This document shows positions 3,660 through 58,885 of a DNA stretch of 64,000 nucleotides, one piece after another. Position numbers and translations under genes: made by a program. Every line of letters begins with the position of its first letter. Position 1 is the first letter of the stretch. Under the pieces are notes generated by a model. It saw only the letters and a program-made list of their open reading frames with translations. It was not told where the DNA came from and did no database searches. Where the stretch lies: the NCBI GenBank assembly GCA_024137785.1, contig JAHRHZ010000013.1, positions 10,973,577 to 11,037,576 of the forward strand, in the 5' to 3' direction. Source of the stretch: Ginglymostoma cirratum (lineage: Eukaryota).

Positions 3660-3800
3660 GCTGTTGAAAGTTCTGATTGAAGGTCACTGTCTTAACTTCA
3701 GTACTGTTTTCTCTCTGCAGATGTTGCCTGACCTACTGAGTATTTCCAACATTTCCATTTTTAGTCAGACATCCAGTATCCACAATATTTTGCTTCTATA
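3660..3800 (+). mobile_element. Degenerate Penelope-like pseudo-LTR fragment
   Basis: GTTCTGATTGAAGGTCA ... CAGATGTTGCCTGACCTACTGAGTATTTCCAACATT...CCAGTATCC matches the PLE terminal unit seen at 30031-30164; ribozyme core is mutated. Confidence 0.5.
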
Positions 3801-6800
3801 CTTTGAAAAATTATAAGACTCATTAATCTTCAAAGAAGGATTTGGAAGTGGAATCCTCTCACAGGTCTATCAGAAAGCATCTCCATATGATTATTTCCAA
3901 TATTTGCTGATATACTATACACATACATTAAAAAAAAACCTGACAAAATTCACAAGGAACTAATTTAGGAATGTAAGACTTTTTTTTAAACTTGGCTTTG
4001 GAGAGAATACTTTCTTGTATCAGAAGTATCATCCCCTGTGCTTTCTTCAGTTTCTCAGCTTAACTTTGCCAGAAGATTGACAGAAATTCCAGGGAAACAA
4101 ATATGTTTACCTAAACTGAAAAAAATAAGAAATTAAGTGCTGGTAACAATCAGCAAGTCAGGTAAAATTATAGGGAAGAGATATCGGGCTGTTGAGCTGA
4201 ATAAGTAGAGCTGGGAATATCAGGACTTTCCTCCTGCGATCTTATGCTGATGCTGTGGGTAGGCCTTGCAGCTTTACCAAACGCAGCCACAACTTCTGGT
4301 GGCGCTGCAGGCAATGGTAAGCTGCAAATCTCTGATTGTAAGGCAGCTCTTGTGGTTAGGATCCAGGATGAGAGAGGGGTATAGAGGGGAGACACTGGGA
4401 GATAGAAGGATATAGAGAAGAGACACTAGGGAACTAGGGAGCAATGTGTTTTAGAGAGGATGTCTTTAGGAATGGGTTCTCTGGTAAGTATTGAACTTTT
4501 GAACGTGGCATTGTGATAGTAATATGTGACAGACCAATTATCAGAAGTCAACCCGAGTGTACATTTCCAGTTTATTTTGTACTTATTTAGTGTAACTTCT
4601 GCTCAGAAAGACGAATGTACTAACACTGGAACTTTCTCTTCTGATGGAGTTTTGTAGTTGAAATCAGGTTATTTAGAAAGCAGGAGGTGGATATGGGTAG
4701 CAATTCTATAGTGTGTAGATAAAGGGTAGGATATTCCCCATGTGGCATCTGACCAGAGATAAAAGAAAGGGAAGTCAACCAATATATGTCTAAGCAGTGG
4801 GAAGGTTAACTATTCCAAACACACTGACACTTCAGAACCACATGAAAAATGAACACTTGGTAACAATAATGCTTTAATTAACAAGTTAAATCACTGCTCT
4901 TGCTAAGAGCTATGTTCATAGAATCCCACTGTTGCACTGCTAGACATCGTCATGCACTGCAGCTTGGCTGCACACAATTAATTGCAAAATGTATTGTCAC
5001 TTGATGACTTGGTGATGTCAACAGATGCCAACAGACTGCTTTAAATTGATGTGAAGAATTCACCCTGCTCTTCTGGGGCCAGATGACAACCACACAAATA
5101 AATGAGGCCCATTAATGTCACCGAGTGATTAGAGACTGTCCACATTAGTTTTATGTGTAAATGTCCACCATGTGGCTCGAGTCAAGTTGTGCAAAGCCTT
5201 ACAGTTCTCACAGAATATCTATTCTGCATGTGCCAACATTCTACATAATCCCGAACTACTTTATCATGAACGTAGGACAGTCCAAATATGAACTGACAGA
5301 AGGAAGATATTTACAAAGGCAGCCTTTAAAACATGCCATATAGCAATGTTGTATCAGATTTTATAATTCTCAATGAGTAAGGTAGCGACAGAAATAAGGA
5401 TTCTACTTTTACAATGTTTAGTGACAAAATTGCATCATAAAACAATTGAAACTAATTTCATAAAGTATGTGAGCCACAAAACACTCATTAAAATTAATGG
5501 ACTCTGAGTTGCACAATATTCCAAAACATCATTTTGGAAGATCACCAGTGATGAGACATCCACAACAGTTCAGTAACATGCAGGATTAAGCACCAGAAGG
5601 AGCTGCCACTGAAGCTGGTGAACACCCGCTGCCCACCTCTCACCAAGTACAGGTCACTGTTAAGTTACTGAGCTGTGATCCAGATGACAATGCTTTCCTG
5701 AAAGTGGAAGGAAAGGATATCACTGAACAAATGATAAGATTTATGATGGAAGTGGTAATGGTCATAAGGTAGATAAATGTGGACGTTGGAGAAAACATAA
5801 CAGAGCATGGAACAGGAGAATATCTGAGCTCTATCAAGCCTATCCCCTGCATAGACTATGCACCATCTATCAAATCATCAACTCTTTTCCAGTTGTTTAT
5901 GAACTTAAAGGATGATTCTGGGTTATTTCTAAGTCACCATGAAAGGTATTCAAGCAATATTTGGGAATGCCAATCTATCCTCATGTCTATACTATTCACC
6001 CCTGGCTGACTAATCTTTCAGAATACATCCCATTTTAGCCACACCAGAAACAGAATGAAACAAGAAGTACATTGTCAGTTTAGTCCCTGCTACGTTATCG
6101 TATCATTCAATCAAATCAGTTACTGATCTATCACAACTCAGAAGATGTTTATTAAAATATCAGTATTGTTCCACATATCCACTATTATGTGGGAGGGGAA
6201 AGTTTCTTAATCCCAGAATCACTCACTTTGAATTCAATATAAAGGAAAATCAGGCAAGGGTCCGTTATGAGATGCCCACTTGTTTTTCACTCCTTGAGAT
6301 GACCACTTCAGACGTTAATTGCTGGTGAGTCAAGAAAGTCACCCGCGGGCATTTTCACTCAGCATTTAATTGCAGAGAAGCAGGTGAAATCTCCAGGACC
6401 AACTTGTTGATTATTATCCCATTTGACCATCTCGCTCACCTCCAGAGAGTAGAAAACTCCACCCATTTTTTTTTGCTTTTTCTGTTACTACTATCATAAC
6501 AGTAATTGTAACAAGTTATTCTTCCCTTACAGGAGAAAACTTCCAAATATTTATTTCTAATGAGGGCCATTCCTGCTCTTTAAGTCATTTCAATGCAACC
6601 CTAAGAACTGTTTATCATTTCCAGTATTTTACGGGTTCAATCCTCTGCATTTAATTATTTCCAGCAAGCTCTGTGACGGAATATTTATTTGTTTATACAA
6701 ATGTACAACCCCTCATCTGTTTCCCACTGACCCATTGCAAATGCTATATCTTCTTCTTTCTTCTGCTACAATTCTTCTTACTTACTTTCCTATTATTTTC

Positions 6801-8562
6801 AAGATTCTTACATTATCAGGTTACTCCAGTAATTAGCTAATTAACAATCTATTAATTTAAATCTATTAGCAATATCACACAAACTTCTCCATTACAAGTC
6901 TTACATTCAACTGCATATAAACCCCACATTTAATTAATCTACATTTCAACGTTTGTCTACTTTTCACATTAGATCTGCTTGTAATACAGGCCTATCATGC
7001 TTAAAAAATACTTACCTCCTACTGAGCTGGCGAAGGATCCACCTAATTCTAATGACTACTTGATTCTGTGTCCTCCACAGCATTCACGAACTCAAAGCTT
7101 CTCTCTTACTGCCTCCTCATGTTGTCTATTCCCCCAAATTGCTGCTTCTCTTCTCCTCTTTGAGATGGCATAATCCTTTAGCTGATCTTTTTTTCCACTA
7201 AACCCTTTGCTCTATTATTTGCAAAACAGAATTCACATCTTGACTAGGGCATAAAAAGCAACCAATTTGTTTTCATGTTTTCTGTGATTTACGTTCACAA
7301 CAGAAGATGCTTAAACAACTCAAATAAGTTCCCAGGTACTGCCAGGAATGCAACTTGTGAAGTAGATTGTGGATCTAATTTTCTGAGGAACATTCCTCAG
7401 GTGAAACTCTTGATTCTGAAGCTGTTTTAAATAAAGAAATGTTGCTCACCTCACTGTTGGGAAAGTTCTTTTCCTCTAATTTTTCAGCAGGATAAAACCA
7501 ACATTATTTATCTTTTATATTCTGTAAGTGCTCACGTGTGTGTGGTGCAATGTGTCGATGATATTTTAGGAAAACATTTATCAGGTTCAATTATGACAAC
7601 ACTTTAGTGACACTAACTTCTCCAAGTTTTCAAAACCCCATCTTCTTCTAAATGTTAATAGCTCCCTTCCTTCCTGGGATCCTTTTCAGGCCACTCTCAA
7701 TGCTTGCTGGCTGCACATAAATCTAATTGAGTATTTCCTTTTAATGTTGTACAGGCTGGGATCTAATGCTGCAATCCTCTGTCTTTGTAAATATATGCAG
7801 AAAGTTTAGCATGAAAAATCCTTTTTTTAAATTTTAAAATCTGATTTTAATCAAAATGTGAAAGTTGGCACAGAGCTCTGCCTTGATACTATCACCTACT
7901 GGCATGAAACAATAAAAACTACCATCATTTGCAACTCAGGAAATCATTCATTATTGGGCATTGAATATATTCCAAAAATTGATATGAATTCCCAGTGATA
8001 TTAGAAAGGAAACTTTAATCAATGATAAAATTAAGGATTCTTTAAGAACATTTGACATTGCAACATGTATTTCATTATTGGTTTGAAATCTTGATTTCAT
8101 TATAATAAAGTGAGGCAAGATTAATGAAATCACATGAAATATTTATATAATCTGCGTCCAGTGTAGAATAACATCTTTTAATGAGAGCTCAACTCACATG
8201 AACTATAAGGATTCAAACATTAATGCAGAAATGCGCACTTAAAGCACAGAAATGACTAGAGAAACATGTATAGAAAACAAAACAAATAAAACTGCTATCC
8301 AAAAACTGGTCTATAATTATAACACCTCCTTTGATGTGTTTTAAATTTAGTCCATTATTTACTTAATGCTGCTCAACCTACTGGCCGTTTTAAATTCAGA
8401 ACTTTCCTCCACTCTTATGGCTATATTGCACACAGGTTTGGAATGCAACTGTGTAAATAGTGCCTAGCACTGATGAAGTCTTAATAAAAGAAAACGTAGG
8501 ACATTTATTTCCTTTGTTATCATGTCAACCACATTCGCCACTGCAGGAGCATTTAGCATCTA

Positions 8563-12479: not shown

Positions 12480-13270
12480 ATTGACACAATGTGATATTTG
12501 AGCTTCATAAAAAGGTGTTAGGACAAGTGACAAATAGCTTAGTTGAAAAGGCAGTTTAAAGGAGCATCTTAAAAAAAAGTGAAAGGGGTGCACAGGTTCT
12601 TTAGGCTATGGCAGAGATCAGAACCTAGGCAGCTGAAGGCAAGGCCTTCAATGGTGGAGTAAATGAAATTGGGGATGCTCAAAGGGCAAGACTTGATGGA
12701 TTGCAGAATTTCAGGAGAGATATAAAGCCAAAAGAAATGACGGTGGGATAAGCTATTGAGGGTTTTAAATGCCAAGGTGAGAACTTTCATCTTGTGGCAT
12801 TGCCACACCAGGAATCAATCTAAGTGAGCAAGACAGTAACAATGGTGAATGGGACTTCAGACAGCATTAGGATATAAGCCACAGCATTTTCATAGAATCA
12901 TAGAGTCCCTACAGTATGGAAGCAGGCCATTCAGTCCATACCAACCCTCTGAAGAGCATCCCACCCAGATCCATCACCTCCACCCTATCCCTGTAACCCT
13001 CCTTTTCCTATGGCCAATCTACCTAACCTGCTCGTGTTTGGACTGTGGGAGGAAACCGGAGCACCCGGAGGAAACCCACGCAGCGACAGGGAGAATGTGC
13101 AAAATCCAGACAGACAGTCACCTGAGGGTGGAAACTAAACTGAGTCCTGGGCACAGTGAGGCAGCAGTACTGAGCCGCTGAGCCACCATGTCACCCCTAA
13201 ATTTTGAATGAGTTCCGGTTTCCAGAGGCTGGAAGACAGGTGCAGCCTAAAGAACAATGGAATAATGAAA
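12480..13270 (-). mobile_element. L2 LINE 3' fragment, interrupted by an HE1 SINE
   Basis: ORF 12569-12808 KVLTLAFKTLNSLS...IEGLAFSCLGSDLCHSL matches the L2 C-terminus (KILILVFKSLHGL...GGRAFS.LGP.LWNSL). Sequence resumes after 13198. Confidence 0.6.
12891..13198 (-). mobile_element. HE1 SINE (V-SINE superfamily)
   Basis: tRNA head (GGTGGCTCAGCGG...CACTG), V-domain GGGTTTCCTCCGGGTGCTCCGGTTTCCTCCCACAGTCCAAA, CR1-type tail TAGGGACTCTATGATTCTATG. Confidence 0.9.
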
Positions 13271-15215: not shown

Positions 15216-15331
15216 GAGTGTTTAATTTCTGTTTCCGTACCTCTTCTTTATTTGTTCTCAGGATATAGGTGAATCTTTAATAGCCTCAAATTTCTCCCGT
15301 GCTTTACCCTTTCCTTACTGGAACCTTTGAT

Positions 15332-16090
15332 AGAACAAAGAACAAAGAAAACTTACAGCCCAGGAACAGGCCCTTCGGCCCTCCAAGCCTGTGCCGGTCC
15401 AAATCCACTGTCTAAACCTATCGCCTAATTCCTAAGGATTTGTATCCCTCTGCTCCCCACCTACTCATGCATCTGTCCAGACGCACCTTAAATGAATCTA
15501 CTGTGCCTGCCTCTACTACCTCTGCTGGCAACGCGTTCCAGGCACCTACCACCCTCTGTGTAAAGTACTTTCCGCGTGTATCCCCCTTAAACTTTTCTCC
15601 TCTCATCTTGAACACGTGACCCCTCGTTATTGAATCCCTCACCCTGGGAAAAAGCTTATCTCCATCAGCCCTGTCTATACCCTTCATGATTTTGAAGACC
15701 TCAATCAGGTCCCCCCTCAATCTCCTTTTTTCTAATGAAAACAATCCTAACCTACTCAACCTCTCTTCATAGCTAGCACCTTCCATACCAGGCAACATCC
15801 TCGTAAACTTTCTCTGTACCCTCTCCAAAGCTTCCACATCCTTTTGGTAATGTGGCGACCAGAACTGTACACAGTATTCTAAATGCGGCCGAACCAAAGT
15901 CTTGTACAATTTTAACATGACCTGCCAGCTCTTATACTCAATACCCCATCCGATGAAGGCAAGCATACCATATGCCTTCTTGACCATTCTATCCACCTGT
16001 GCAGCCACCTTCAGGGTACAATGGACCTGAACTCCCAGATCTCTCTGCTCATCAACTTTTCCCAAGGCTCTTCCGTTTACAGTATAGTTC
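15332..16090 (-). mobile_element. CR1/HER1 LINE 3' end with uninterrupted RT C-terminal ORF (15418-16065)
   Basis: 215-aa open frame RDLGVQVH...LYKTLVRPHLEYCVQFWSP...RRLRGDLIEVFKIM...TRGH...YFTQRVVGAWNALP; 3' UTR ends in TTCTTTG repeats. Confidence 0.95.
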
Positions 16091-16174
16091 GCAATCTATT
16101 GATGGTGGAGACATTTTAGTAAGTCAAGATTTCCGACAGTGGTAGCAGAGTAACCATCTTCTACCTTACTGCAA

Positions 16175-16987
16175 CACTACGAGGTGGTGGTGAGACCACA
16201 TCTGAAGTACTATGAGCAGGTTTGGCCCCTTTATTTAAGGAAAGATATCATTTTGTCGGTGGCAGTTCAGAGAAGGTTCACTAGGATGGTCCCTGGTATA
16301 GTAGGATTGACTTATGAGCAAAGTTTAAACAAGTTGGTATTCTACTCGCCAGAGTTTAGAAGACGTCACACGACACCAGGTTATAGTTCAACAGGTTTAT
16401 TTGAAATCACAAGCTTTCAGAGTACTTCTCCTTCGTCAGATGGCAAGCACCTAATGAAGGAGCTGTGCTTCGAAAGCTTGCGATTTGAGATAAATCTGTT
16501 GGACTATAACCTGGTGTCATGTGACAGCTGACTTTGTCCATCCCAGTCCAAAACCAGCTCCTCTGCATCTCGCTTTTAGAAGAATGAGAGGTGATCTCAT
16601 TGAAATATTTAGGATTCATAAGGAGCTTGACAGGGCAAGTGCTGAGAGGATGATTCCCCTCATGGGGGAGTCTAGGACCAGAGGGCACAGTCTCAGAATA
16701 AAAAGGCATCAAATTAGGACTGAGATGAGGAGGAATTCCTTCTTTCAGAGGTTTGTGCTTCTTTGGAACTCTTGGCCATTGGGAAGCAGAGGGAGCAGAG
16801 TTCTTGTGTATATTTAAGTTAGGTTCGTAATCAGTAAGGGAATCAAGGGTTTCAGGGAAGGGGCAGGAAAATGGACATGAGGAATATCAGATCAGCCATG
16901 ATCCTATTAAACAGCAGAGAAGGCTTGAGAGATTGAATGGCCTACACCTGTTCCTATTTCTTATGGTCTTGTTATGGTCTTATGGTC
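16175..16987 (+). mobile_element. CR1 LINE 3' end (second subfamily), interrupted by a PLE palindrome
   Basis: VVRPHLKYYEQVW...FYSPEFRR | MRGDLIEIFRI...SRTRGHSLRI; tail TTATGGTC repeats. Confidence 0.9.
16364..16574. mobile_element. Palindromic non-coding PLE-derived mini-element with hammerhead cores
   Basis: Arms 16365-16442 and 16448-16525 are imperfect inverted repeats. TSD TTTAGAAGA at 16355-16363 and 16575-16583. Minus-strand core CTGACGA-A-GGAG..CTCT-GAAA-GCTT. Confidence 0.85.
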
Positions 16988-17029
16988 CAACCTGATTTTT
17001 TTGCCATCCTGTTAATATGGCTGACATAA

Positions 17030-18960: not shown

Positions 18961-18984
18961 TTGATTTACACGTCGGGAATTGTC

Positions 18985-19892: not shown

Positions 19893-20002
19893 CAACAAAA
19901 ACAGAAATTGCTGGAAAAGCTCAGCAGGTCTGGCAGCATCTCTGGACATAAAACAAGAGTTAATGTTTGGGGTTGAGTGACCCTTCCACAGAACTGGGAT
20001 CT
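19893..20002 (-). mobile_element. Penelope-like pLTR mini-insertion
   Basis: GAAATTGCTGGAAAAGCTCAGCAGGTCTGGCAGCATC...GTGACCCTTCCACAGAAC, flanked by GAGAGATCAAACCA (19879-19892) and GAGAGATTAATCCA (20003-20016). Confidence 0.7.
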
Positions 20003-22021: not shown

Positions 22022-22335
22022 GGATGGCACGGTGGTTAGCACTGCTGCCTCACAGCGCCAGGGACTGGGTTTGATTCCACCCTCGGGCGACAGTCTGTGT
22101 GGAGTTTGTGCGTTCTCCCTGTGTCTGCATGGGTTTCCTCCGGGTGGTCCATTTTTCTCCCATAGGCCAAAGATGTGCAGGCTAAGTGGATTGGCCACGC
22201 TAAATTGCCTGTAGTGTTCAGGGATGTGTAGTTTTGGTGGGTTATATAGGGAGTTCGGTCTGGGTGGGATGCTCTGAGGTTTGATGTGGACTTGTTGGGT
22301 CAAAGGGCCTGTTTCCACACTGTGGGGATTCTATG
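22022..22335 (+). mobile_element. HE1 SINE (V-SINE)
   Basis: GGCACGGTGGTTAGCACTGCTGCCTCACAGCGCCAGGGAC head, V-domain, tail GGGCCTGTTTCCACACTGTGGGGATTCTATG. Confidence 0.92.
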
Positions 22336-22744
22336 AAACAGGCAAAAGTTATATACCTCAAATACTGCAAAATTTATTGCATCATTCTGTCCAGTTATCA
22401 TAGTTTTTTATTTGTTTTAATGTAAATATTACTTGTTGTTCAATTGAATGGCCACACAAAATATCAACAGTTGGTTCAATTTTGAGTCAATTTCTCCTCA
22501 ATAACCACAGTCTACCATGGCCCCTGAATAGTTAGTTGTGGGTGCGAGTGAGAAGGCTCTCTGCTGGTTTGATTTAAGGCAAAGTTGCATTATTATTTAT
22601 TTAAGTGATTTATGTTGTGAATAAGGTAGAACAGTGATGTGTATACCCCCTGCATTATATTTCTTTTACTTAGTGTATGTTTTTATATTGATTATGTGGA
22701 CCTCTTGATTATCCAAAATATTTGATCAATTGGCGCACTCTAGT

Positions 22745-28900: not shown

Positions 28901-30024
28901 GCTCTTGATGCATATGTGGTGACTTCCACTGCTCACAGATCCATGGAACTGAATTTGCTGAAGATTGTGCCATAGTGCATCTACTATGTCTGCCATTATT
29001 ACATGCAGAAATTCTCAGTGATTGTAGTGTCAGTGACTTATGCCATTTTGTGCACAATATAACAATTTGCTGGGACTTTGGCCCTACTCCTGAGAGATCT
29101 TTGCCCAAAACACTAAACAATTGACTGTCGTAGCTTTGCTAACTGTTAAGATTGTTAGAGAGATTGAGTATGCTAGATTAACACCACTGTGATTACCTTA
29201 GCCACTTATACCATAACAGAATAGCACTGGAAGACTCAGGATCATTATAGTATTCAGTCATTCAGCAAGTTGCCACAGGGTAACATTTTTACTTACTTGT
29301 ACTGCAAACTTCACTGAGAACTTAAAACTTAATTAACTAATAAATTAGTATTTTGACAGCTAGGCATGTTCTGACTTTTCCTGACTGATATTTTTATATT
29401 AATATTTATTGAGCTCAAGCATCAAGCATGAATTGCAACCATAATGAATTATGGATAGCCATCCTGCAGAGCGTAGGAGACAAGCCTCTGCATAAGGGTC
29501 ACATCTTAAAGTCGATTTATATATTAATACAATGGTTTCAGTACAATCTCATCATTCAAATAAAATCTGACCTCGGCTTTCTGTTCGTACATGCTGTGAC
29601 TCATTCCAGCTATAAAAGATAAGAGCCATTGTTCCTAATACATCCCTATTTCCTATTTAACTTGTTTAGCTACGATCAGGAACATCCTAGTTGGAAACTG
29701 GAGGACTTCTGCATCAGTTACAACATTGAATGAACGAATAAATTAGATTTATTGTCATATGTACTCAAATGTACTCAATATACTCAAATGAGTTCAGTGA
29801 AAAGTTTACAAATTGCCACTTACGGCATCATCCGCGGTCCAAGACACTTAGGTACAGATTCTTCAGTACAAGTTCTTAGGGTAAAAAAATAAAAATCCCA
29901 GTGAGGTATCAAGGTCAGGGATGACATAGGGACAATAAAATTAAATGGAAATTCTTCGAGTGGTGGAGATATGAAATTGGAACAAAAACCACGGAATGCC
30001 TAAAACTGACTATATTTTTCTTGC

Positions 30025-30164
30025 GCAAAGCATTTCTGATGAAGGGTCTAGGCCCGAAACGTCAAGTTTTCCTGCTCCTATGATGCTGCTTGACCTGCTG
30101 TGTTCATCCAGCCCCACGCTTGTTATCTCGGATTCTCCAGCATCTGCAGTACCTTTTATCTCTA
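30025..30164 (+). mobile_element. Solo Penelope pLTR mini-element with 14-bp TSD
   Basis: TSD TATATTTTTCTTGC at 30011-30024 and 30165-30178. About 3 substitutions in 99 nt versus 47878-47976. Confidence 0.9.
30031..30068 (+). ncRNA. Minimal type-I hammerhead ribozyme motif
   Basis: CUGAUGA (30036-42), extra A, stem II GGGU-CUAG-GCCC, GAAA (30056-59), palindromic ACGU helix III, GUC cleavage triplet (30061-63), short stem I AUUU/AAGU. Confidence 0.75.
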
Positions 30165-31546
30165 TATATTTTTCTTGCTGACTGAATTGCTGTTTATTCC
30201 TATATTACATGGCTTGAGACAGGTGTGATGCGAAGTTCCTCTAACTTTATTATGACAGTGATAACCCTATCATCTCAGCGCAATATACCAGATGATTTTT
30301 GTCATTCAGCATTGTGTATAATTATTGCTGCGTGAAGTAGACGAATCAGTGCTGTGACATTGTGCTAAAGGCTCTCATGATTTGGGAACAGAACTAAGCT
30401 GAGCTTACTTAGAATATTTAATAACTGCAGGAGGGGAGTCTATCATGTGATCCACTTACATTGGATTTTAACCTAGGGTGGAACATTCTGAGAAAAGTCC
30501 CAGTCTCCCACACACAGTTATAAAGACTCTTTCATCGATGTATCGTATTCAATTATTTAGAACTGTATTGCTATATCTTTCAAGACTGCTACTGCTTCTT
30601 GAAGTCCCTCTTGCGCTCCCCCCTCACCTATTTGAATCAATCATTAATAGCGTGCACATCGTTATACAATTGAGAGTTCCCCTGAGCAGATTCCTTAAAA
30701 AAGCAGGAGCATTTTTAAATAGATATTTACATTGACCGTTAAGTCATTCATAGATATAGTGAGCAACAAGATTTTAAGTAGTCTTTCTAATTGCAGTTAA
30801 AGTTTGTGGGAGTTGAAATAGATTAATTGTTGGCTTACATTTCTAATAAAAACTAATGGCCTCAAAATTGTATTTTGCCAAATGGATACTGTTGAAAAGG
30901 TTACTGCACATGTTTTCCTTCATTTCAAAAGTTTTGTTTGCCTTTGCTCATGAAACTAGCTTAAATAACTGCTGACAAGCAGAAGGCTTTCAGACTGTGA
31001 ACAGAAAAGACTCTGAATTCATGAACTCCACCTATAATCTCTCATGGCACTATTCATATTCTCTTAAATGGTCTTAATGCCCATTCCTCCTTCAACCAGC
31101 AAAAATAAGGCAAATAGGTCAAACACTTTATTTTTATCCATGGGATGTTGCAGTGCTTAAAGTGTTTGTTTTGCTTTCGTACAAAATAACAGGACTGTAC
31201 TACACAAAGAATTGTTTGGGAAGAAATTAACAGAAGTGCTTAATAAATACAGGCCTTTTTCTCTTTCTCTATACATAATATTTCAGCAAATCTGAATAGA
31301 CTAAAGATATAGGCTTTGAATTTTCATTGACCTAGTGGCGCATGTCGAATTAGACAAGAGTGAAGCAAATGTGGGAGCAAACTCCAATAGCTATCCTAGT
31401 CCAGGCAATGTACTTTAGATGCAGCTTGTTTTGGTGAAATATCTGTCCATTGCAAACGTTGCCCATGATCTTACAGGTACCATGGTGAAGAAATTTCCAT
31501 AACATGAGTTTCCTTGACCCCATCATCGTCAAAACTAAGTGAGAAA

Positions 31547-31920
31547 GGGTGGCACGGTGGCTGAGTTGTTAGCACTGCTGCATCATGGCAGATTCAATTT
31601 AATCCCAGGCGTCTGTCTGTGTGGAATTTGCACATTCTCCCAGCTTCTGCATGGGTTTCCTCTGGGTGTTTTGGTTTCCCTCCACAATCCAAAGACGAGC
31701 AAGTTAAGTGGACTGGCCATGCTAAATTGCCTGTAGTGCCAAGGGATGTGCAGGCCAGGTGGATTAGCCATGGGAAATGCTGAGTTATAGGGATAAGGTG
31801 GGGTGGAGTGATGTGGGGTTTGGGGGGATTGGGTCTGGGTGGGATACTCTTTGGAGGGTGGATGTGGACTCGATGGGCCAAATGGCCTGATTCCACACTG
31901 TCTCTATGATTCTATGATTC
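31547..31920 (+). mobile_element. HE1 SINE (V-SINE)
   Basis: GGGTGGCACGGTGGCTGAGTTGTTAGCACTGCTG head, V-domain, duplicated GGA(C/T)TGGCCATG block, TCTATGATTC tail. Confidence 0.9.
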
Positions 31921-33912: not shown

Positions 33913-34128
33913 ATCATAGAATCCCTACAGTGTTGAAGCAGGCAATTCGGCCCATCAGGTCCATACCATCCCTCCGAAGAGCGTCCCACCCAGACCCATC
34001 CCTATCCTATCCATGCATTTGCCACCCTAGACACTATGGGCAATTTAGTATGGCCAATCCACCTAACTTGCACATCTTTGGACTGTGGGAGGAAACTGGA
34101 ACACACGGAGGAAACCCACGCAGACATA
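33913..34128 (-). mobile_element. HE1 SINE, 5'-truncated
   Basis: CATAGAATCCCTACAGTG...GGACTGTGGGAGGAAAC...GGAAACCCACGCAGACA (antisense tail and V-domain). Confidence 0.85.
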
Positions 34129-34996: not shown

Positions 34997-35193
34997 AGAG
35001 AGTGCAACCCTTTCCCAGCTCTGTTTCTTCGGATGTAGATGCTGTACCTTGGGCACCATCAGCAAACAGGAAACTTCTTGAGTGCCAGCAGACAATGTCT
35101 GATTTATTGACTGGTTTTACAGAGACATTGTTGAGGATTGCAATGAAATTGGAGGAATCTGCCTAATGCATGCCACATACATTTAGGGATGAT

Positions 35194-35420
35194 CAGAGAT
35201 AGCAAGAACTGCAGATGCTGGAGTCTGAGATAACACGGTGTGGAGCTGGAGGAACACAGCAGGCCAGGCAGCATCAGAGGAGCTGGAAAGCTGACATTTC
35301 AGGTTGGGAACCTGATTCAGAAATGAGGAGGGGGAAAGGAGGTCAGAAGTAAATAGAGAGAGGAGGGATGGGGCTGGGGAAGGTAGTTGGGATGGTGGTA
35401 GGTGAGTGCAGATAGGGAAT
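35194..35420 (-). mobile_element. Penelope-like 3' UTR/pLTR fragment
   Basis: Antisense of the unit at 47780-47970; hammerhead core decayed. Confidence 0.8.
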
Positions 35421-43459: not shown

Positions 43460-43670
43460 TATAGTAAGAACTGCCGATGCTGGAGTCAGATATAACACAG
43501 TGAGCTGGAGGAACACAGCGGGCCAGACAGCATCAGAGAAGCAGGAAAGTTGACGTTTTGGATCAGGACCCTTCTTCAGAAATTCTGAAGAAGGGTCCCG
43601 ACCTGAAACGTCAACTTTCCTGCTCCTCTGATGCTGCCAGGCCTGCTGTGTTCCTCCAGCTCCACACTGT
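43460..43670. mobile_element. Head-to-head palindromic PLE pLTR dimer with hammerhead cores
   Basis: Inverted repeat centred on TTCAGAA-A-TTCTGAA (about 43582). Flanked by GTTACGATAATAGA (43446-59) and GTTACAATAATAGA (43671-84). Confidence 0.9.
43582..43616 (+). ncRNA. Minimal type-I hammerhead ribozyme motif
   Basis: CUGAAGA (43585-91), A, GGGU-CCCG-ACCU stem II, GAAA (43605-08), C-GUC. Confidence 0.6.
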
Positions 43671-44324: not shown

Positions 44325-44626
44325 CCCTCAGAGATGTTATTACACACCTTTGGATAAAGTCAGAAGTCACATGACACCAGGTTACAGTCTAACAGGTTTA
44401 GTTGCGTTCACAAGCTTTCAGAGTGCTGCCCCTTCTTCACCTGACAAGAGAGCAGTGCTCTAAAAGCTTGTGATTTCAAATAAACCTGTTGGACTACATG
44501 ATTTTTTCCACCCCAGTCCAACACCAGCACCCTCATGTCATACACACCTTTGGTGCCAAATGGACTTGAACCCAGGCCTCCTGGTTCAGAGGTGGGGATA
44601 CTAGTATTGCACCGCAAGAGGGCCCC
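44325..44626 (-). mobile_element. Short tRNA-derived SINE split by a PLE palindrome
   Basis: Minus strand GGGCCCTCTTGCGGTGCAAT...CTCTGAACCAGGAGGCCTGGGTTCAAGTCC...CCAAAGGTGTGTA | ATAACATCTCTGA. Confidence 0.7.
44354..44540. mobile_element. Palindromic PLE-derived mini-element (same family as 16364-16574)
   Basis: GTCACATGACACCAGGTTA...CACAAGCTTTCAGAG / CTCTAAAAGCTTGTG...AAACCTGTTGGACTA; perfect 13-bp TSD TACACACCTTTGG at 44341-53 and 44541-53. Confidence 0.85.
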
Positions 44627-47298: not shown

Positions 47299-47969
47299 TT
47301 CTACATCGGGGAAACCAAGTGGAGGCTTGGGGACCGCTTTGCAGAACACCTGCGCTCAGTTCGCAACAAACAACTGCACCTCCCAGTCGCGAACCATTTC
47401 AACTCCCCCTCCCATTCCTCAGACGACATGTCCATCCTGGGCCTCCTGCAATGCCACAGTGATGCCACCCGAAGGCTGCAGGAACAGCAAATCATATTCA
47501 GCCTGGGAACCCTGCAGCCCAATGGCATCAATGTGGATTTCACAAGCTTCAAAATCTCCCCTCCCCCAACCGCATCCCAAAACCAGCCCAGCTCATCTCC
47601 ACCTCCCTAACCTGTTTTTCCTCTCACCTATCCCCTCCTCCCACCTCAAGTCATACCCCCATCTCCTATCAACTAACATCATCCCGCCCCCTTGACCTGT
47701 CCGTCCTCCCTGGACTGACCTATCTCCTCCCTACCCCACTACCTACACTCACCTTTACTGGCTCCATCCCCGCCTCTTTGACTTGTCTGCCTCCTCTCCA
47801 CCTATCCTCTCCTCTATCCATCCTCTATCCGCCTCCCCCTCTCTCCCTATTTATTTCAGAACCCTCTTCCCCTCCCCCATTTCTGATGAAGGGTTTAGGC
47901 CCGAAACGTCAAGTTTTCCTGCTCCTATGATGCTGCTTGACCTGCTGTGTTCATCCAGCCCCATGCTTG
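47299..47969 (+). mobile_element. Penelope-like retroelement, 5'-truncated (GIY-YIG C-terminus, 3' UTR, pLTR)
   Basis: Open frame YIGETKWRLGDRFAEHLRSVRNKQLHLPVANHFNSPSHSSDDMSILGL...RRLQEQQIIFSLGTLQPNGINVDF; TTATTTC duplicated at 47292-98 and 47970-76. Confidence 0.93.
47878..47915 (+). ncRNA. Minimal type-I hammerhead ribozyme motif in PLE pLTR
   Basis: CUGAUGA (47883-89), A, GGGU-UUAG-GCCC, GAAA (47903-06), C-GUC (47908-10). Confidence 0.75.
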
Positions 47970-50900
47970 TTATTTCAGCTACAGCCTGGTTCATTCCAGC
48001 CTGGTCCATGCCTGTAAGAAATGAAACCTTTCTGCTTGAGTTTATTTTGAGCTTTGGCTTTAGTATGGTTGACGATTATCGACTGTAGTCTCTACTTTCT
48101 GACACTTCAAACGAAGAAGTCAGCATAATAGAGGATCTGTTTCCAGCCGCAGGCTCTAATCTGAACAACACTCCTTCTTACTGTTACTCACCTACTTGGT
48201 GACAGATCGAATTTAATCAGCTCCTGAACAGAAGAGAAAAACTGTTGTATGTTGCACTGGTTGATGTGGCATAAATTGGGTAAACTTAAAATTGTGCCGT
48301 TCGTAGGGAAGGTCTGTTTATTTGAAAGCACCAAGATTAACACTGGCTCAAAGTTGAGGCGGAGAGCATATCTTCCACGATGTTGAGCGACTTACATAAC
48401 ACAATGCTGTGCTTTCATTGCTGAATACCTTTTAGTTTTGTTTCGCTCATAGCAAAATAAAATCTTATCTTTTTATTTGTTTAGATGTATGTTGCCTGCG
48501 AACCAAAATTTTAGGTGGTTGAGTTAATGCACGTTGTTTTTAAATATGAGACATTTTTAACTTAACTTACACTCTGTTTTTAGTAAAAATGGTTTTACTA
48601 TAATCTTCTCATACTTATTGATGTCAACCCCAGTCCATTAGGTGTTTGCCTCTGCCTACCTAAAGGTCATCTCTAAAGACTGAGTCAGATAAGCTAAGAA
48701 TGATTCTTCTTTCTATTTCTCACCTTTGCTCTTAATGACACTTCAATACCATGGGCAAGGCAGGGAACTTGCAATGTGGGGAATCCCAATATAAACATGT
48801 AACCTGTGGTACAACACAGACCTTAAACAAATCATGTTTTCAACTGGCATATTGATAGCAGTGGATTGATGGTAGTAAAGTAAAAAGGTTAGAGATTTCA
48901 ATAACAATGACAGTTCTGGCATATCCTGCCTTTAAACTAGAGCACTGTATGTTTCAATTTTTTATGATTATACCGCCCAGTAGGTTATTTGCAGAAGATT
49001 AATTTCAGCATTATATTTACGTTCACTCCTCAAATTGTGCAATTCATCATGTCACATGCATATTGTATAAGATAACCCTCCCTAATTTTGAGTCTAAATT
49101 CACTGCAAAATCTATGAATTGGGGGTGAAACACCTCATTGTCCAATACAGTAGGAAGATTGATTTTAATGTAGACTGGCTGTTACTTGTGCTGCTACCAT
49201 TATGTGTAGAGAGAGAAGAAACCAGAGGCCTGAGGAGGAGGAGTGGAAGACTGCAAGCTGGAGAAAGTGAACAAGATAGTCAGGGACCATGCAAGAAAGG
49301 AGAAAAATTAGTCTATGTTCCCTACGGTGAACTATAGTATAAGACACTGAAGAGACTCAAGTACAAGACAACCTCCAAAGCATAAGGTCACTTTCTCATC
49401 CACTACAGAGGTAGCCATTTTTCGAGTGAATGTAAGTAAACAACTCTTTTAAAATTGACCCTTAATTTTTAAACAATGTGCAGTAGTATTGGACAAAGAT
49501 TTTGCTGGTAATTTCTCTCTGAATTTATAATTGACTTTTCTGCTATTTTCCAGATGTTGTGCATGGTGGTCAATCCAACTCTCATAAAGTTGACAATTAT
49601 GGTCTGATCCAAACAATTTGCATGCAGCTCTTCTGCACTACTAAGTACTATCAAAAAAAACTTCTCTAGTTTTCTTAGTTTTCTTGCAAAAACTTAAACA
49701 AACGCCTCTCATTTGCAAGACCCTATGCATTTTTGCCATCCCCGACTCATTAATATTAGAACGGAACAGAACCTGTTACCCTAAGTCATTTTTTATCATT
49801 CCTTATTGCTCAACAAGGGCACTCATTTCTTCGTTTAAAACTTAAAGCCTGACACAAATGTCTAGATATTATTATTGCTTTTCCATGAGTCTCTCCTATT
49901 TTCAATATTGGTGGTGTCTTGTACTCTGGTTTGGCCTTTCACCTAAGTATGTTAATTTGAAGGAAAATTCAAATTCACTGGGAGAATTGTTGAAAATATA
50001 GCATAAATAAAACACACACGCGGGTTTACAGTAAAACCTGCACAACTTACACCAGAGGTGCATTCCTGACATGGTTTGCCAATTTAATTTTTCGGCATAC
50101 ATTACATAAAAAATTGGCATGTTTAATAGCTAATGCAAAACAAAAAAAATCATTAGAAATAAGAGAGAAAAAAGTAATGTGCACATGTTTATAAAATGTA
50201 TAGGGAGGGCTGTGCTATTTTTGACCTTTTACATAGTGAAGTCATAGAAAGTTGAGCTGTATGTTATACATTAAAAGATTATCAGTAAATCCCCAGAAAA
50301 ATAGTAGTTTCTAGTTATGGAAAGTTCTTTCACTACCTTGAGAAAGCAAAGGCCTGCATTGCCCCAGGTAATGCAGCATATGTCAACCAGTTGTTGCACA
50401 AATCCTTCTTACTATTACCAAAGGAAATGAGAGCCAGTGAAAGTATGTGTAATCCATTCCAACATAATTTTTGCAGCTGCTATGTCAGGTCAAAGGCCAG
50501 GATTGAACTTGGAGGCATAACAGGGACAAGGCTGAAACTGTACCCTTTACAACTAAATTATCTTGTTTACATTAACTGTCTGTGTGCCAATCTAAAATTA
50601 AATTATTCTCTAAATATTTGGACACCACTTTCGAGATGATGTGTTATTATCGGCAATACTTGTGTCAAACCAGAAAATGTATTGTTAAGAGTTCTGACTG
50701 ACAGGCAACATTACTGAATATAACATTTGAAACAGTTGTTCACCTGGCGTATGTTAGATGTCAAACTGAGCAAGATGTTTACTGCGACTGACTAAATGAA
50801 CTCTATTTTTCAATTTATTTTTGAGTGAGATTGTACAGATCTTGTGCAAGGCCAGCTGCTACCAGGTCAGGTTACACGGCAGTAACCATTCCCTTGAATG

Positions 50901-51595: not shown

Positions 51596-51639
51596 GTAAT
51601 TGTCAAAATCAATCAGGGGAACCCACGAGTTGTGAGATC

Positions 51640-51945
51640 ATAGAGGATTTTAGCAGTGAACTAGATGAGAAATCAAAAGGCCTGAAACTAATACTGCAAG
51701 GGCCAGGGGAGTAAATATCACCTCAGCTGAAAATATAATTAATTAATAAATCTCAAATAAAATACAACACTCATTAATGATAATCATGATACGACAAATT
51801 TATCATAAAACCCTACCTGGTTCACAAATGTCTTAAAGATGGAGAAGTTTGACATACTTACCTAACCTGGCCTGTACATGGCTCCAGACCCATGGCAACA
51901 TGGTTAATTCTTAACTGAACTTTGAAGGGGCCCAGCAAGCCAGTG
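51640..51945 (+). mobile_element. Second degenerate copy of the same SINE
   Basis: CTGGTTCACAAATGTC...CCTGGCCTGTACATGGCTCCAGACCCATGGCAACATGGTTAATTCTTAACTG. Confidence 0.6.
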
Positions 51946-53379: not shown

Positions 53380-54300
53380 TTATCTTCCTCCTCAGAAGAC
53401 TGCTGCTGCTCTCCCAGCCCTTTTACCTGCTTCAGTTGTGTGGATCACAGCATGCGAGGATTGTGTGGCACACCCCCTCTAGAGCGTACTGCAACACCAC
53501 CCCCCAGATATGGAATTCTTTTTTCAGCAGCTCTGTTATCTACTCCACCTTGACCCTGTCAAAAAATGGGCCATATTATACCTACGCTCCAACGGTGTCA
53601 GGAGCTAGCATTATGGAGTAGCCATCAGCCATGGTCACAGGGAGTAGCCCTTGTTTCCTAGTAACAATCCTCATAATGCATCTGACTCTTGAAGCATGGC
53701 AGGAACATAGGAGCTGTCAAGGACAGATGCATCATGGAAAATCCCAGGGTCTTGGGCAAACTTCTAGGATGCAGTAACAATGCTCATAGATGACTTGCAC
53801 ATTGATGGAATGGGAACTTATTTTGTTCATGAAGTCTGCTACGCTCTGAGAGGGCACTCTCAATGCAATGTGTCTATATTGCATTGCACCTGGTAGATGC
53901 CAGTTACATTGGTAAAGATACTGGTCAGCTGTAGATCTGACTTCCACACACAGAGAAACTAGATGAACCGGTGTGATTTGTCACATACTGCATTGGTAAC
54001 AGTCTTAATAAATTTGTGGATAAGTTGTGAGATTGCACACAGATCCTCCATGGATCCTTTGAAGCAGTCAGTTATCACCTTGCTATCACCTTGACAGCCA
54101 CTGGGAAGGGAAGCCACCTTCAGCTCCCAGGACCAGGAGTTGGCGTTGTTCTACGACAGTGTCCCAGGACATGAGCAGTTTGCAGTAACACTGCACCTTG
54201 CTCATCTGCAGGAAATGGTATTGAGGACAATTGACGCTGGGCCTCTTGCACATCCTAGCGGGGAGAGGATCTTCACATGCTATCTCTTCACATGGAGGCC
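53380..54300 (-). pseudogene. PIF/Harbinger (HARBI1-like DDE) transposase pseudogene
   Basis: Across frameshifts: PGAMQYRHIALRVP...FMNKISSHSINVQVIYEH..ILEVC..PG.FHDASVL...LLLGNKGYSL*PWLM.TP...VE*ITELLK...VLQYALE.VCHTILACC.PHN. This matches the family motifs GAIDCTH / NRKGFHSINVQ / PGS.HD / LLGDKGYPL.PWLMTP / CCALHN. Confidence 0.88.
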
Positions 54301-54529
54301 ATTCAGAGATTGCTGCTACGCCTGGGCTTTCTGCAGCATCTGTTCATCCTCACTCTTTCTGTATCTCTGTTGCATCACAGCAGCAAAGACAATAACCCTG
54401 CTGTGATTGTACTTCCAATGATCCCATCTGGGCAATATAAGAAGCAGAACAACTCCTATTAAATGTGAGCAGTCACATCATTCACAAATGGCAGTTTAAT
54501 ATCATCTCTCACACAGTGAGACATTGTGG

Positions 54530-54785
54530 TTGGGGTAAGGTCATGGCAGAAGGTGCCACAAGCTCTAAAATTGTTGAACTCAATATTGTGTCCAGATGGC
54601 TGTAGAGTTCTTTATCTTCTGCATAAAAACCAATATTTTCCTATCTACCATCAGTTGTGAAGAAGGTTACCACGATCTGAAACATTAATTGATTTGTCTC
54701 CACAGTTGCTGACAGAACTGCTGACTTTTTCCAACAATTTCTGTCCCTGCTTCTGGCTTCCAGCATCTGCAGTTCTTTTGGTTTA
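54530..54785. mobile_element. Penelope-like fragment with inverted pLTR
   Basis: Antisense ORF end (CTAAAATTGTTGAACTCAATATT, as at 15150) joined to a sense pLTR (GTTGTGAAGAAGG...TGAAACATTAA...TTCCAGCATCTGCAGTTCTT). Confidence 0.6.
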
Positions 54786-55239
54786 ATATTTAGACAGACG
54801 GTCCTGTCTGATGTACGACCCGATCACTGATTGATCTCTGTGCAGCTCCCTGGCTTACCATGACTCCCTGGGAATGACTGGACCAGGACAGACCATGGCC
54901 CACCCTCCGCACTGTAGTGAGACAGACCCCTGACTCTTGAAGTCTCAAGTGGCTGGCTGACTGTGCCAGTTTGAAATTCCTCGTCATGTCAATAATCACA
55001 TTTCTGCTAATCTCATCCTATTTTCCCAACTGACGTGCCAATGCCTACATTGTTCACAGTCTGGGAAGATTCCCTTTTTGTCTCCATTCACTAACTCTGT
55101 GTGTCATCAGTAGAATGGGACATATGAAAGAAACATGAACATTAACATTATCTGAACTATTATCTTATGCAACATCATTCCCCAAGAATTTTTTTTCTCA
55201 ATGTTTAACATGTTAAACAATCATGTATATAACGTTATT

Positions 55240-58200
55240 GCACTTACAATACACCAAATCACTTACCTCCAAATTTCTGACTTTCCAAATGCAGGCTGTC
55301 TGGACATCGTACTATTTTCTCTTTATTCACTTTCTTCAGACTTGTAAGAATGATCGATCCCTTGCTTTAGTACTATTGACCCTTGTTATGATTTATGGAT
55401 CATTCTTCCATAGATTACCTTTTTTCTCTCAAATATCCTTTGTGGAGAGTATTGTTCTTCATAGATGGTGTTTTTGGTCTAATACCTAACCCGGAGGACC
55501 GTTAATCTCCTGACTTCCTGGAAGAACAATTGCTTTATTGAATGAATCATTTCTACCTTGTGGCATTCTGGATTTCTGGATCAAACAGTTTCTTATCCTT
55601 GACCACGTCTATGTTCTGTGGATGTTTGTCTGGCAGAAGTGACATTATATGCAGCTTCTCACCCTTGAGTTGTTGGCAGGATAGACGACCTCAGTCATTC
55701 ATGTTTAAGCTTTTCAGACTCACAGTCATGTTACTGGAAGATTGCTCAGAGCTATCTCAGTCCCTGGCATTGACTGTTCTGTTTTAGAAGACAGAGAGTT
55801 GAGTGTTTCCACCAGTTCTATGAAGTGTGTGACTTCCTCTGTGTTGACAATGTTAAACAGCTCTGTGCCAACATATAGGGTATGGCTTGATTCTTTGCTT
55901 TCTTTGAGTTCCACCTTAAGTCTGGGAAGCCCAGTGAAGACTTCCACTGGCTATCTTTTGACTGGTTGGTCAATAGTGATTTGATCATGAGCAAGTGCTT
56001 GGACAGCTGTTTGCTTCCGGACCAGTTGTAATCTGGGAGGTTGTCAACTTTTCCCAACTCTTCTGATGAACATGATACCGAGACATGCATCCAGGCTGAA
56101 ATGTAAAGTTGGTTGACTGTGAACAACAAACATATTTTCAACTCTTTTATGTGCATCCCAGTGTAATATAATTCGCAGATTCCTGTGCTTCTGATAGTTA
56201 TTCCATCTGTGCCATCTCATCTTACCTCTTTTATTCTTTAGCCTTGGAAATTGGCTGGATAGGACAAGAACACTTGCTCCTGTATCAGGCACAAAATCAA
56301 CAAGATGCCCATTGGCAAAGATAAGTTCTGCTTTTCTGTCTCCTCAGTGTCATTAGTACCTCCAGGAATGCCTCAGGTATCTCCTTCAGGGGAGATAATA
56401 TATGAAAATGCAGGCATCTTTTCCATTGATAGCGGGTGTTCTACTGTGTGGGCTGCTTAGCATATGTAACAACTAATACTTCTGCTTTCATGAGACTGTG
56501 TCTTACATCTGAACATCTTCTCAAAGTGACCTACAGTTCTATAAATGTAGCAAACCTTAGTGATGGCTGAACATTGCCTTTCCCTTTGGTGTCACTTAGG
56601 GCTGACACTGATTTTTTTTATGTCATTGGGTTTTTGGCTTGTTCTCTTTATAAGCTTGTCACATATCACTTTATAGTGTCCATACCATATAGAGTAAATA
56701 GAATCTGTTTCCACCTTGAAGGTGTGTGATCTTGTCCTCTCAAAAGGTCTGTGAGTCTTTCTGATTTCTATTTCTAACACGATTCAAATAACTTCCTCTA
56801 ACATTAGGTCTTCCTTGTACCAGAAGAAATCTGACAAAGTTTCATCAAGAAATCTAACAACAAACATCTCTTATGGATTCTGATTTCAAAACTCCACATT
56901 CACAGATTTCCACTGATCTGAAGAAGCAATTAGAGTCGTAGAGTCATTGAGTTGTACAGCGTGGAAACAGACCTTTTAGTCCAACTCCATGCCAACCAGA
57001 TATCCTAAATTAATCTAGTCCTATTTTCTGGCATTTAGTCCATATCCCTCTAAACCCTTCCTATTCATATACCCATCCAGATGCCTTTTAAATGTTGTAA
57101 TTGCGCTAGCCTCCACCACTTCCTCTGGCAGCTCATTCCATACACGCACTACATTCTGTGTGAAAAAGTTGTCCCTTAGGTCCCTTTTAAATCTTTCCCC
57201 TCTCACCTTAAATGGATGCCCTCTAGTTTTGGACACCCTGCATTAGATAAATATGAGGTGCAGCATTTTGGAAGGGCAAATCAGGGCAGAATTTATACAC
57301 TCAACGGTAAGGTGCTGACAAGTGTTGCTGAACACAAAGACCTTGGAATGCAGGTTCATAGTTCCTTGAAAGTGGAGTCACAGGGAGACAGGGTAGTGAA
57401 GAAGGCATTTAGTACACTCGCCTTTATTCATCAGTGCAATGAGTATATTAGTTGGGGGATCATGTTGAGGCTGTACAGGATATTGGTTCGGCCACTTTTG
57501 GAATACTGTGCGCAATTCCGGTCCCCTGCTATAGGAAGGATGTTGTGAAACTTGAAAGGGTTCAGAAAAGATTTACAAGGATGTCACCAGGTTTGGACGG
57601 TTTCATCTATAGGGAGAGGCTGCATAGGCTGGGGTTATTTTCCCTGAAGCTTCAGAGGCTGAGGGGTGACCTTATAGAGATTTATAAAATTAATGAAGTT
57701 ATTTATGGATTAACCTAGAAGTTGAACTTTTTGTTAAATCTTACTCATTTAAGAATTGTATTTGTTCTTAAACTGAAATAATTTTCAAAAGCTTTTATGG
57801 CATTTTTAAAAGTGCATGTATTCTCTGCGATGCTGTGTCTGTTAATAACATTATCTGCAATCAGACCCACTGAACATAAACATGTATTTTTATGATTGGC
57901 TTCAGTCTTACTGTTTCACATTGAGGCAATGACTTATCTTAATAATTGCAGCCTCCATAACATCCAAACATGTTCTGTGATCTTGAATCTACCAAGAAAT
58001 TTTAACTCTTTTTACATTTCTTTTCAATGTATTTATTAATTGTGTTGCTGTAAATGTATTTTAAATCTGTATCATTTCAAGATTGCTTTAAATTTAGTGT
58101 TCTTTAAGCTTGTATTCTCGTATTCATCGACTCTGTTTTAAACTGAATGAGTGTAGAACTTACTAGACTCTGTACAACATTTTCTTTGTCCGCCAGTTTT
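55240..58200 (-). mobile_element. Decayed Gypsy LTR retrotransposon (gag-PR-partial IN), split by a CR1 insertion
   Basis: Gag W.LW..Q..R..IAS...CSVG.IADNV...AFENYF.LR.NTI...RFN | FIN.FFR.VE.CECG.LK.E.IRD.FVV...EDLMLEEVI; knuckle AITKVCYIYRTVGHF; protease PDTGASVLVLS; EVFTGL; VRSCI*C. PBS-like TGGCGGACAAAG at 58184-58195 (minus). Confidence 0.82.
56933..57687 (-). mobile_element. CR1/HER1 LINE insertion with inverted 5' segment
   Basis: 56933-57240 (minus) = SKTRGHPFKV...end and tail; 57241-57687 (plus) = DKYEVQHFG...LRGDLIEIYK; AATTA on both flanks. Confidence 0.92.
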
Positions 58201-58261
58201 TTAAAGTCGGAATTGCTGTTCTATTGTTTCAAGTTCTTCAATAAAGTTTTCAATGTGTTAC

Positions 58262-58333
58262 AGACAGAAAAACGCAACAGGTCTGGCAGCATCTGTAGAG
58301 AGAGGGAGACATGTATGACTCTTCTTCAGAACT
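58262..58333 (-). mobile_element. Penelope-like pLTR fragment
   Basis: CAGGTCTGGCAGCATCTGTAGAGAGA...GACTCTTCTTCAGAAC. Confidence 0.6.
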
Positions 58334-58786
58334 TCGGTAGGTTGTGGTATTTATTGCCTCTGTCAGGGTGTGATGCTGAGAATGGGTTCTTTGAAGCAAT
58401 TCACTGTCACCAATCCTCTTTTGTCTTTGCTTTGTCTTGGGCACATCCATTGTTTAGTGGCAGAGGATATACCAGTGTAGAAAGGGAACCATTCTTAGAT
58501 AACAAGAAGGCTTCTAGTATGTCAGTAAGAAGTATGTCTACATGTAGTCATGCATTGTACTGGGATCTTAGTGAGTTGGTACAGGTGTCTCAGGGTGGGC
58601 TCGATGTAACGTGGTCATTAACACATTCAGGACCTTTCACAACATGAATGCATCTCAAGTCTGCAGAAAGTAGGAATTCTTTAGCAATATTTGGTCAACT
58701 GTGCATGGCGGTGAAGTCCACCTGCAAATCCTATATTGTTTTGTTCACAATTAGTTAGCCTGCTGACAAGTGGTCACGTGGGAAAA

Positions 58787-58885
58787 CACTTTCCTGCTCC
58801 TCTGATGCTGCCTGGCCCGTTGTGTTCCTCCAACTCCACACTGTGTTATCTCTGACTCCAGCATTGGCAGTTCTGACTATCTCTG
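58787..58885 (+). mobile_element. Penelope-like pLTR fragment (no ribozyme core)
   Basis: ACTTTCCTGCTCCTCTGATGCTGCCTGGCC...CTCCAGCATTGGCAGTTC..ACTATCTC, same as 43615-43670. Confidence 0.8.

Follow-up and report, generated by a model that had tools for sequence, protein, structure and literature searches.

Short hammerhead-bearing insertions in the Ginglymostoma cirratum genome as likely cap run-off products of a Penelope-like element

Retroelements with long terminal repeats (LTRs) make minus-strand strong-stop DNA and undergo a first strand transfer, R2 elements jump end to end between templates, and Penelope-like elements (PLEs) are the sister group of telomerase. We analysed a 64,000-nucleotide (nt) stretch of the Ginglymostoma cirratum genome (assembly GCA_024137785.1, contig JAHRHZ010000013.1, positions 10,973,577 to 11,037,576, forward strand; hereafter the window), in which pseudo-LTRs (pLTRs) of PLEs are dispersed, several of them as tiny insertions related to the hammerhead ribozyme. 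The 3' ends of these pieces are fixed, and their 5' ends have a common starting point immediately ahead of the hammerhead. By analogy with described systems, and with the RNA start inferred from genomic junctions, the tiny insertions are likely to be dead-end products of the reverse transcriptase (RT) of an autonomous element running off its template. According to the literature cited here, which was consulted in part, PLE terminal-repeat regeneration has no obvious mechanism beyond tandem formation (PMC2377424), and the steps after internal priming have been left unvalidated (PMC11167929). No published run-off or jump model was found in a search of titles and opening lines of abstracts, subscription papers and supplements lying outside that search.

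For PAc, a Poseidon element of Anolis carolinensis, reverse transcription in vitro starts at two internal sites, on both nicked strands, and priming requires RNA of the start of the open reading frame (ORF), not ribozyme cleavage (PMC11167929). As here, the two start sites bound a tail and no RNA-seq reads end at the ribozyme cut; PAc differs in clade, and the behaviour of its RT at the RNA 5' end is not followed in the accessible part of that paper. Endonuclease-bearing (EN+) PLEs of the Neptune type share with the shark element a single ORF for RT and GIY-YIG endonuclease, a CX4CxxC linker, pLTRs, an optional tail of 30-40 base pairs (bp), inverted 5' copies, target-site duplications (TSDs) and heavy 5' truncation (PMC8557442, PMC3846280), but a pile-up of 5' ends, a non-templated G and A-run jumps from mid-ORF to the front of the element do not feature in those descriptions as far as they were accessible. 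In rotifers, unrelated DNA has been found captured between pLTRs (PMC3846280). The minimal hammerheads of metazoan PLEs resemble those described below in their short helix I, bulged base before helix II, loopless palindromic helix III and occurrence mostly as single dispersed motifs; cleavage and circular RNA templates were proposed to account for tandems (PMC4209133), whereas the ends mapped here lie off the cut site. Non-LTR retrozymes are likewise non-coding, hammerhead-bearing, related to pLTRs, dependent on PLE enzymes and found also as dispersed 'monomers', but are built of head-to-tail units each with a ribozyme (bioRxiv 10.64898/2026.07.22.740005, accessible text); the window copies are solos or head-to-head pairs with no lineage of their own, and head-to-tail pairs elsewhere in the genome were rare and short only. 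Finally, LTR strong-stop synthesis, R2 and L1 offer parallels to a scheme in which synthesis is primed close to the 5' end of the RNA, runs off at the cap and is transferred to a 3' end, as well as to the non-templated G, the extra G marking the mRNA cap in full-length L1 insertions (PMC11702581, consulted in part). Unlike in LTR strong-stop synthesis, nicked target DNA rather than a tRNA would serve as primer, and the run-off product is often integrated as such; the likeness to strand transfer is thus a resemblance in working and not membership.

The parent of the youngest pLTR group, group A, could be read from copy L219, in which an open frame of 1049 codons scores above the cut-off for both Pfam RVT_1 and GIY-YIG, so that a single ORF carries the RT and a C-terminal endonuclease. 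Since L219 and a further copy, L217, both carry this frame uninterrupted, the family has been recently active. Read by eye, the protein has a C-x4-C-x2-C linker ahead of the endonuclease and C-x2-C before YIG; the former is the criterion for the Neptune type (PMC8557442, accessible text), and by this linker criterion the parent element is assigned to the EN+ PLEs of that type. In full copies the order is 3' untranslated region (UTR), C-rich run, ATTT, hammerhead, first 3' site, a 34-nt tail and the start of the ORF. The tail continues into the ORF start, and the pLTR plus tail therefore also form the front of the unit. pLTR, optional tail, inverted 5' copies and TSDs, all features of EN+ PLEs, are present. 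Judged by its sequence, the group-A hammerhead, with a conserved core, a bulged base before helix II, a helix I of 4-5 bp and a palindromic, loopless helix III, is of the minimal type described in PMC4209133 (as far as accessible). A cofold of two hammerhead copies paired helix II between the copies, which is not the active dimer. Positions are counted below with the C of CUGA as 0, and the predicted cut follows +27.

Searching the window by BLAST with queries derived from it gave 16 hits, which make up 12 loci of PLE pLTR sequence in four repeat groups, A-D; all the places at which an earlier note on this DNA had seen terminal-repeat pieces were confirmed. The window is not enriched in them: together with seven 100-kb blocks (five more, unreadable, were left out) it provides 743,880 readable bases with 195 pieces, or about one per 3.8 kb; its own 64,000 contain 16, a density typical of the genome. 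Scaled to the 4.36-Gb assembly from these non-random blocks, this would amount, as a rough inference, to about a million pieces genome-wide.

To map their ends, 192 of the 195 pieces were aligned to longer copies of their own group; 15 that adjoined unreadable sequence and one with a low score were dropped, leaving 176, and seven inverted arms that the aligner put far upstream fell outside the test range. The 3' ends fall into two clusters, at about +94 and +128 in groups A and B and at about +95 and +131 in group D. Among 136 5' ends in the range -60 to +55, 61 fall in -6 to +1, where 9.4 would be expected from a uniform distribution; without inverted arms the figures are 33 of 78 and 5.4. 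A 4-nt window at the predicted cut held 4 of 125 ends, against 4.3 expected. The 5' ends therefore cluster about 32 nt upstream of the predicted cut, with no excess at the cut itself. A similar offset of the start is seen in groups C and D, whose sequence is different. Thus the endpoints, which the earlier note had proposed to examine, are clustered, but not at the cut; its view that the insertions are not random truncations holds, given the excess of 5' ends immediately ahead of the hammerhead core, and so does insertion by PLE machinery, borne out by the TSDs and the tail, while their delimitation by the ribozyme does not. With the core only 4-5 nt downstream of the start, copies give the impression of starting at it or folding back on it. 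The CUGANGA..GAAA core is intact in only four window arms (16415, 30036, 43585 and 47883).

The same boundary emerges from whole-genome counts, which cover exact-match copies of young group A and do not count breaks further upstream or inside the pLTR. The templated junction is present in 28,675 copies, a break at -4 (non-A) in 11,569, at -5 in 4,414 (2,392 G and 2,022 A or T) and at -6 in 3,240 (1,236 G and 2,004 A or T), so that the template is left within three positions in 40% of 47,898 copies. At the cut site a broader pattern, mutations included, found 1,707 copies with a non-templated base. Among the first 30 unselected young copies, 15 were templated and 15 started at -6 to -2.

The junction also bears marks. 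The non-templated base is G in 54% of breaks at -5 and 38% at -6, against a background of 24.5%, and in 21 of 100 at the cut site among the matches listed. The start point lies in a sequence that fits the initiator consensus, YYANWYY. When 60 loci starting with G were inspected, 23 proved to be solos, 21 inverted pairs, three ORF jumps and one a pLTR jump, one was a mutated templated copy and 11 were unreadable upstream; a few of these loci are two arms of one insertion. An extended T-run, of up to about 20 T, is frequent at the start point (L349, the C53 block at 76987, L223), which suggests slippage at the start of transcription or the end of reverse transcription. In five copies (L296, L298, L302, L310 and L316) a short piece of the element's own 5' end is repeated once or twice right before the start, as if the template end had been re-copied, reminiscent of telomerase-like realignment.

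A further class of copies returns to the same point from within the ORF. Forty loci were chosen by the first 330 bp of the ORF only, and 37 were followed, the query's own locus and two unfetched ones being left out; the candidate numbers of the DNA search (2515 for the ORF start, 338 for the ORF end) are not copy numbers, and in unselected blocks no ORF-start pieces occurred while ORF-end pieces were common. Twenty-three of the 37 run from the pLTR through the ORF start to a variable mid-ORF point (unit positions 463-2166) and then pass directly to the front of the pLTR; six reach the pLTR by way of the 3'UTR and eight could not be determined. An unambiguous G stands at the joint in 13 of the 23 (p=0.001), and an A-run of 4-16 precedes the joint in five, against none of 23 G-start solos (p=0.049); 30 loci that had been retrieved with A-run and G in the query were left out of both statistics. 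On their left side, 14 jump-shaped copies also start at unit positions 1-3, one of them behind a 3'UTR. One TSD of 9-16 bp encloses 13 of the 23, seven directly and six only if an inverted arm is allowed, that is, with a wider search window. Three other copies (L229, L195, L192) have large internal deletions that rejoin in the 3'UTR and not at the start point; either a jump onto homologous sequence or a later loss may account for them.

Taken together, a capped RNA would start 4-5 nt before CUGAUGA. By analogy with Poseidon of Anolis, the RT would begin at either of two internal priming sites, which would lie about 100 and 135 nt into the RNA; so short a distance from the front would bring it to the cap nearly immediately, where it would frequently add G. 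Joined to the target, the run-off cDNA would yield a solo of 100-140 bp such as that at 30025; should it meet a second such cDNA, begun on the opposite nicked strand, the two would form a head-to-head fold-back in which one arm has the tail, as at 43460; and a jump onto an RNA 3' end, where that RNA is in some cases truncated within the ORF and bears an oligo(A) tail, would produce pLTR-ORF-pLTR copies scarred by an A-run and G. Such a jump would place the front end of the RNA at the 3' end of the new copy. It is conceivable, although we advance it only tentatively, that PLEs rebuild their pLTRs in this way, by a retrovirus-like first strand transfer in which strong-stop cDNA made near the capped 5' end jumps to the RNA 3' end. 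The seamless majority of copies would then be the homologous version of the jump, a hammerhead cut in the downstream pLTR may leave a 32-nt overlap like the retroviral R region, and solos, fold-backs and A-run-plus-G copies would be failures, kept in hundreds of thousands of genomic copies. The 60% of seamless copies fit a homology-based jump and equally an origin from tandem templates, the long-standing assumption (PMC2377424). The element, its hammerhead, its tails and its inverted repeats are of known kinds; it is the quantified junction footprint that makes pLTR regeneration testable and may reveal how this family rebuilds its terminal repeats, as the junctions give a prediction of the RNA start at single-base resolution, as well as of run-off that depends on the cap and of jumps to 3' ends, to all of which the existing in vitro assay is applicable. 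Run-off would also explain many single hammerhead motifs without a retrozyme family.

Several observations weigh against run-off at a cap. The -4 class, the largest, has T in 79 of 100 and G in only 9 of 100 among the matches listed, and G forms the majority only in the -5 class; many ends therefore show T-run growth or are unmarked. Some of the 'breaks' (3 of 30, and 1 of 60 in a second set) turned out to be templated copies with a point change, the limits of the peak window were set once the first loci had been inspected and the null was simply uniform, and the roughly 60% of counted young copies that are templated through the junction fit ordinary tandem templates equally well. Jump-shaped copies make up a small share of those taken without selection (1 of 30; 3 of 60 in the second set). 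Unstranded poly(A) RNA-seq tracked genomic copy abundance and showed no pile-up of starts or ends, although such data could not reveal a small circular RNA and one run (X19) was almost without reads. In favour of the jump, contigs of another run (X14) contain returns to the start with a G between; one jump joint with G was covered by 42 RNA reads, most simply as the transcript of a genomic copy.

A cut in DNA could yield the same boundary, because the sequence at which the PAc endonuclease most often cleaves both strands is a 5'-ATT-3' lying just past its own ORF-pLTR junction (PMC11167929, as far as consulted). The GIY-YIG enzyme of the shark element might thus cut longer DNA intermediates at the ATT of the junction, with repair adding bases; endonuclease-mediated resolution has been invoked for tails (PMC8557442, accessible text), and most ends of the -4 class do lack a G. 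We nevertheless regard this as unlikely, since it leaves unexplained the 54% G at -5, the confinement of A-runs to mid-ORF jump junctions and the re-copied 5'-end pieces of several solos, and groups C and D keep their offset with a different sequence. Ordinary 5' truncation from tandem templates, with a hot spot created by RT stalling or microhomology at the T-run or the base of the hammerhead helix, accommodates the 15 of 30 unselected young copies that are templated and have scattered 5' ends, as well as further ends scattered inside the pLTR, and single minimal hammerheads have previously been ascribed to truncated PLEs (PMC4209133, in the part consulted). It too seems quite unlikely to us: a more AT-rich stretch 20-60 nt upstream has only 6 of 176 ends, and stalling predicts neither an excess of G nor a repeated return from mid-ORF to one point. 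A splice-acceptor origin of the boundary (compare the D. virilis intron that ends at helix I) was rejected, as the template has no AG there.

The earlier note had suggested self-propagating, ribozyme-delimited, retrozyme-like mini-elements. Short copies that are nearly identical and have an intact minimal hammerhead do exist in the tens of thousands, short-start copies prevail in one pLTR haplotype (28 against 3 templated, although sampling differed between the classes), and tandem retrozymes related to pLTRs have been reported in vertebrates (bioRxiv 10.64898/2026.07.22.740005, accessible text). Yet neither the 5' ends nor the counts of non-templated bases point to the cut, and the short copies have no history of their own. 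On a tree of 122 group-A pLTRs (72 short-start and 50 templated; 92 columns, poorly resolved), the labels short and 3'UTR-linked required 29 changes against 30.5 when shuffled (167 of 500 shuffles were as low) and nine sets of identical rows mixed both classes, so that short and coding-linked copies are interspersed and the phylogenetic check came out against a mini-element. Distinct junctions number 69 of 72, the three repeats looking like neighbouring arms of single loci, and divergence from the reference did not differ significantly between short and templated copies (p=0.26 and 0.07). Among the matches listed, the seams of 33 head-to-head pairs (32 loci) differ, the exceptions being pairs joined bluntly at the common start and a single odd seam that is clearly shared. 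That seam belongs to two fold-backs 0.6 kb apart (L129 area, 85531 and 86104 of a C13 block downstream of the window), most simply a local duplication. The copies of the window, moreover, are not head-to-tail arrays, have lost the core in most cases and are without the ORF-start sequence on which priming by PAc depends. A lineage of their own, as an MRC1-like non-autonomous PLE family would have, was thus not found, the depth of this test being group A only. The retrozyme reading is largely refuted for the young family and appears to us very unlikely overall; such pieces should not be annotated as mini-elements.

The features of the window are collected in Table 1. Copies are named by position: group A comprises 30025 and 47299, group B 35194, 43460 and 58787, group C 16364 and 44354, and group D 3660, 14745, 19893, 54530 and 58262. 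Three of them (16364, 43460 and 44354) are head-to-head fold-backs. The five tiny copies to which TSDs had been attributed have them firmly in four cases; the fifth, 19893, shows a 7-bp match only, which is not firm because among 300 random intervals a 7-bp match occurred in 29 (and one of at least 9 bp in five). A search for flank duplications found no TSD at 3660, 14745, 35194, 47299, 58262 and 58787. Three further copies from the earlier note's list are ordinary 5'-truncated or 5'-inverted copies, because they carry 3'UTR (14745, 35194), the end of the GIY-YIG ORF (54530) or both (14745). The coding piece at 47299, which had been suggested to mobilise the others, matches the 1049-codon protein with 91% identity across the aligned stretch, but since it has only the last 103 endonuclease codons and no RT it cannot itself mobilise anything.

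Table 1. PLE-derived features of the window, in window positions
Feature	Position	Strand	Remarks
Old group-D pLTR and tail	3669..3801	+	5' end 4 nt ahead of decayed hammerhead core; no TSD found
Group-D copy: pLTR, tail, 3'UTR, final GIY-YIG ORF codons	14745..15231 (5' limit approximate)	-	Ordinary 5'-truncated copy
Group-C head-to-head fold-back, 211 bp	16364..16574	.	Within CR1-like long interspersed nuclear element (LINE) fragment; hammerhead core kept in left arm
TSD of 16364 fold-back, 9 bp	16355-16363 / 16575-16583		Exact
Group-D solo pLTR	19893..19996	-	Starts at -5, stops at first 3' site, without tail; weak 7-bp TSD
Young group-A solo, 140 bp	30025..30164	+	Short A-containing addition, non-templated G (30030), start at 30031, tail
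Intact minimal hammerhead of 30025 solo	30036-30059	+	Predicted cut after 30063
TSD of 30025 solo, 14 bp	30011-30024 / 30165-30178		Exact
Group-B pLTR, tail and ~90 bp of 3'UTR	35193..35418 (5' limit approximate)	-	Templated junction; ordinary 5' truncation
Group-B head-to-head fold-back, 210 bp	43461..43670	.	Common start point ends both arms; 15-bp TSD with 1 mismatch
Group-C head-to-head fold-back	44354..44539	.	One arm with tail; 13-bp exact TSD, 44341-44353 / 44541-44553
Young group-A 5'-truncated coding copy	47299..47976	+	Last 103 GIY-YIG codons, 3'UTR, templated junction, end at first 3' site
Intact hammerhead of 47299 copy	47883-47906		
Group-D copy: 3'UTR remnant, pLTR, tail	54503..54780	+	9-bp exact TSD
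Inverted piece of ORF end preceding 54503..54780 copy	~54530-54610		
Group-D remnant with internal deletion	58262..58333	-	Starts at -4
Group-B pLTR and tail	58789..58886	+	Starts at +30, 2 nt past predicted cut; sole window copy near cut; no TSD

An Rfam scan of the window matched no ribozyme model, and its two microRNA hits are the hairpin at 43460. At 8470-8500 lies a lone CUGAUGA..GAAA-like motif followed by ACGU; it matches none of the four query groups and may be due to chance or belong to a fifth, old family. Between the group-D remnant and the group-B pLTR, a decayed stretch of about 450 bp (58340-58786) had one weak match, 74% over 98 bp, in copy L263, and none to the group-A protein. 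Elsewhere in the window, 15418-16095, 16154-16886 and 57180-57548 are presumably CR1-like LINE fragments, and a recurring repeat at 12884-13138, 22070-22336, 31606-31901 and 33914-34126 is one that we take to be like a short interspersed nuclear element (SINE).

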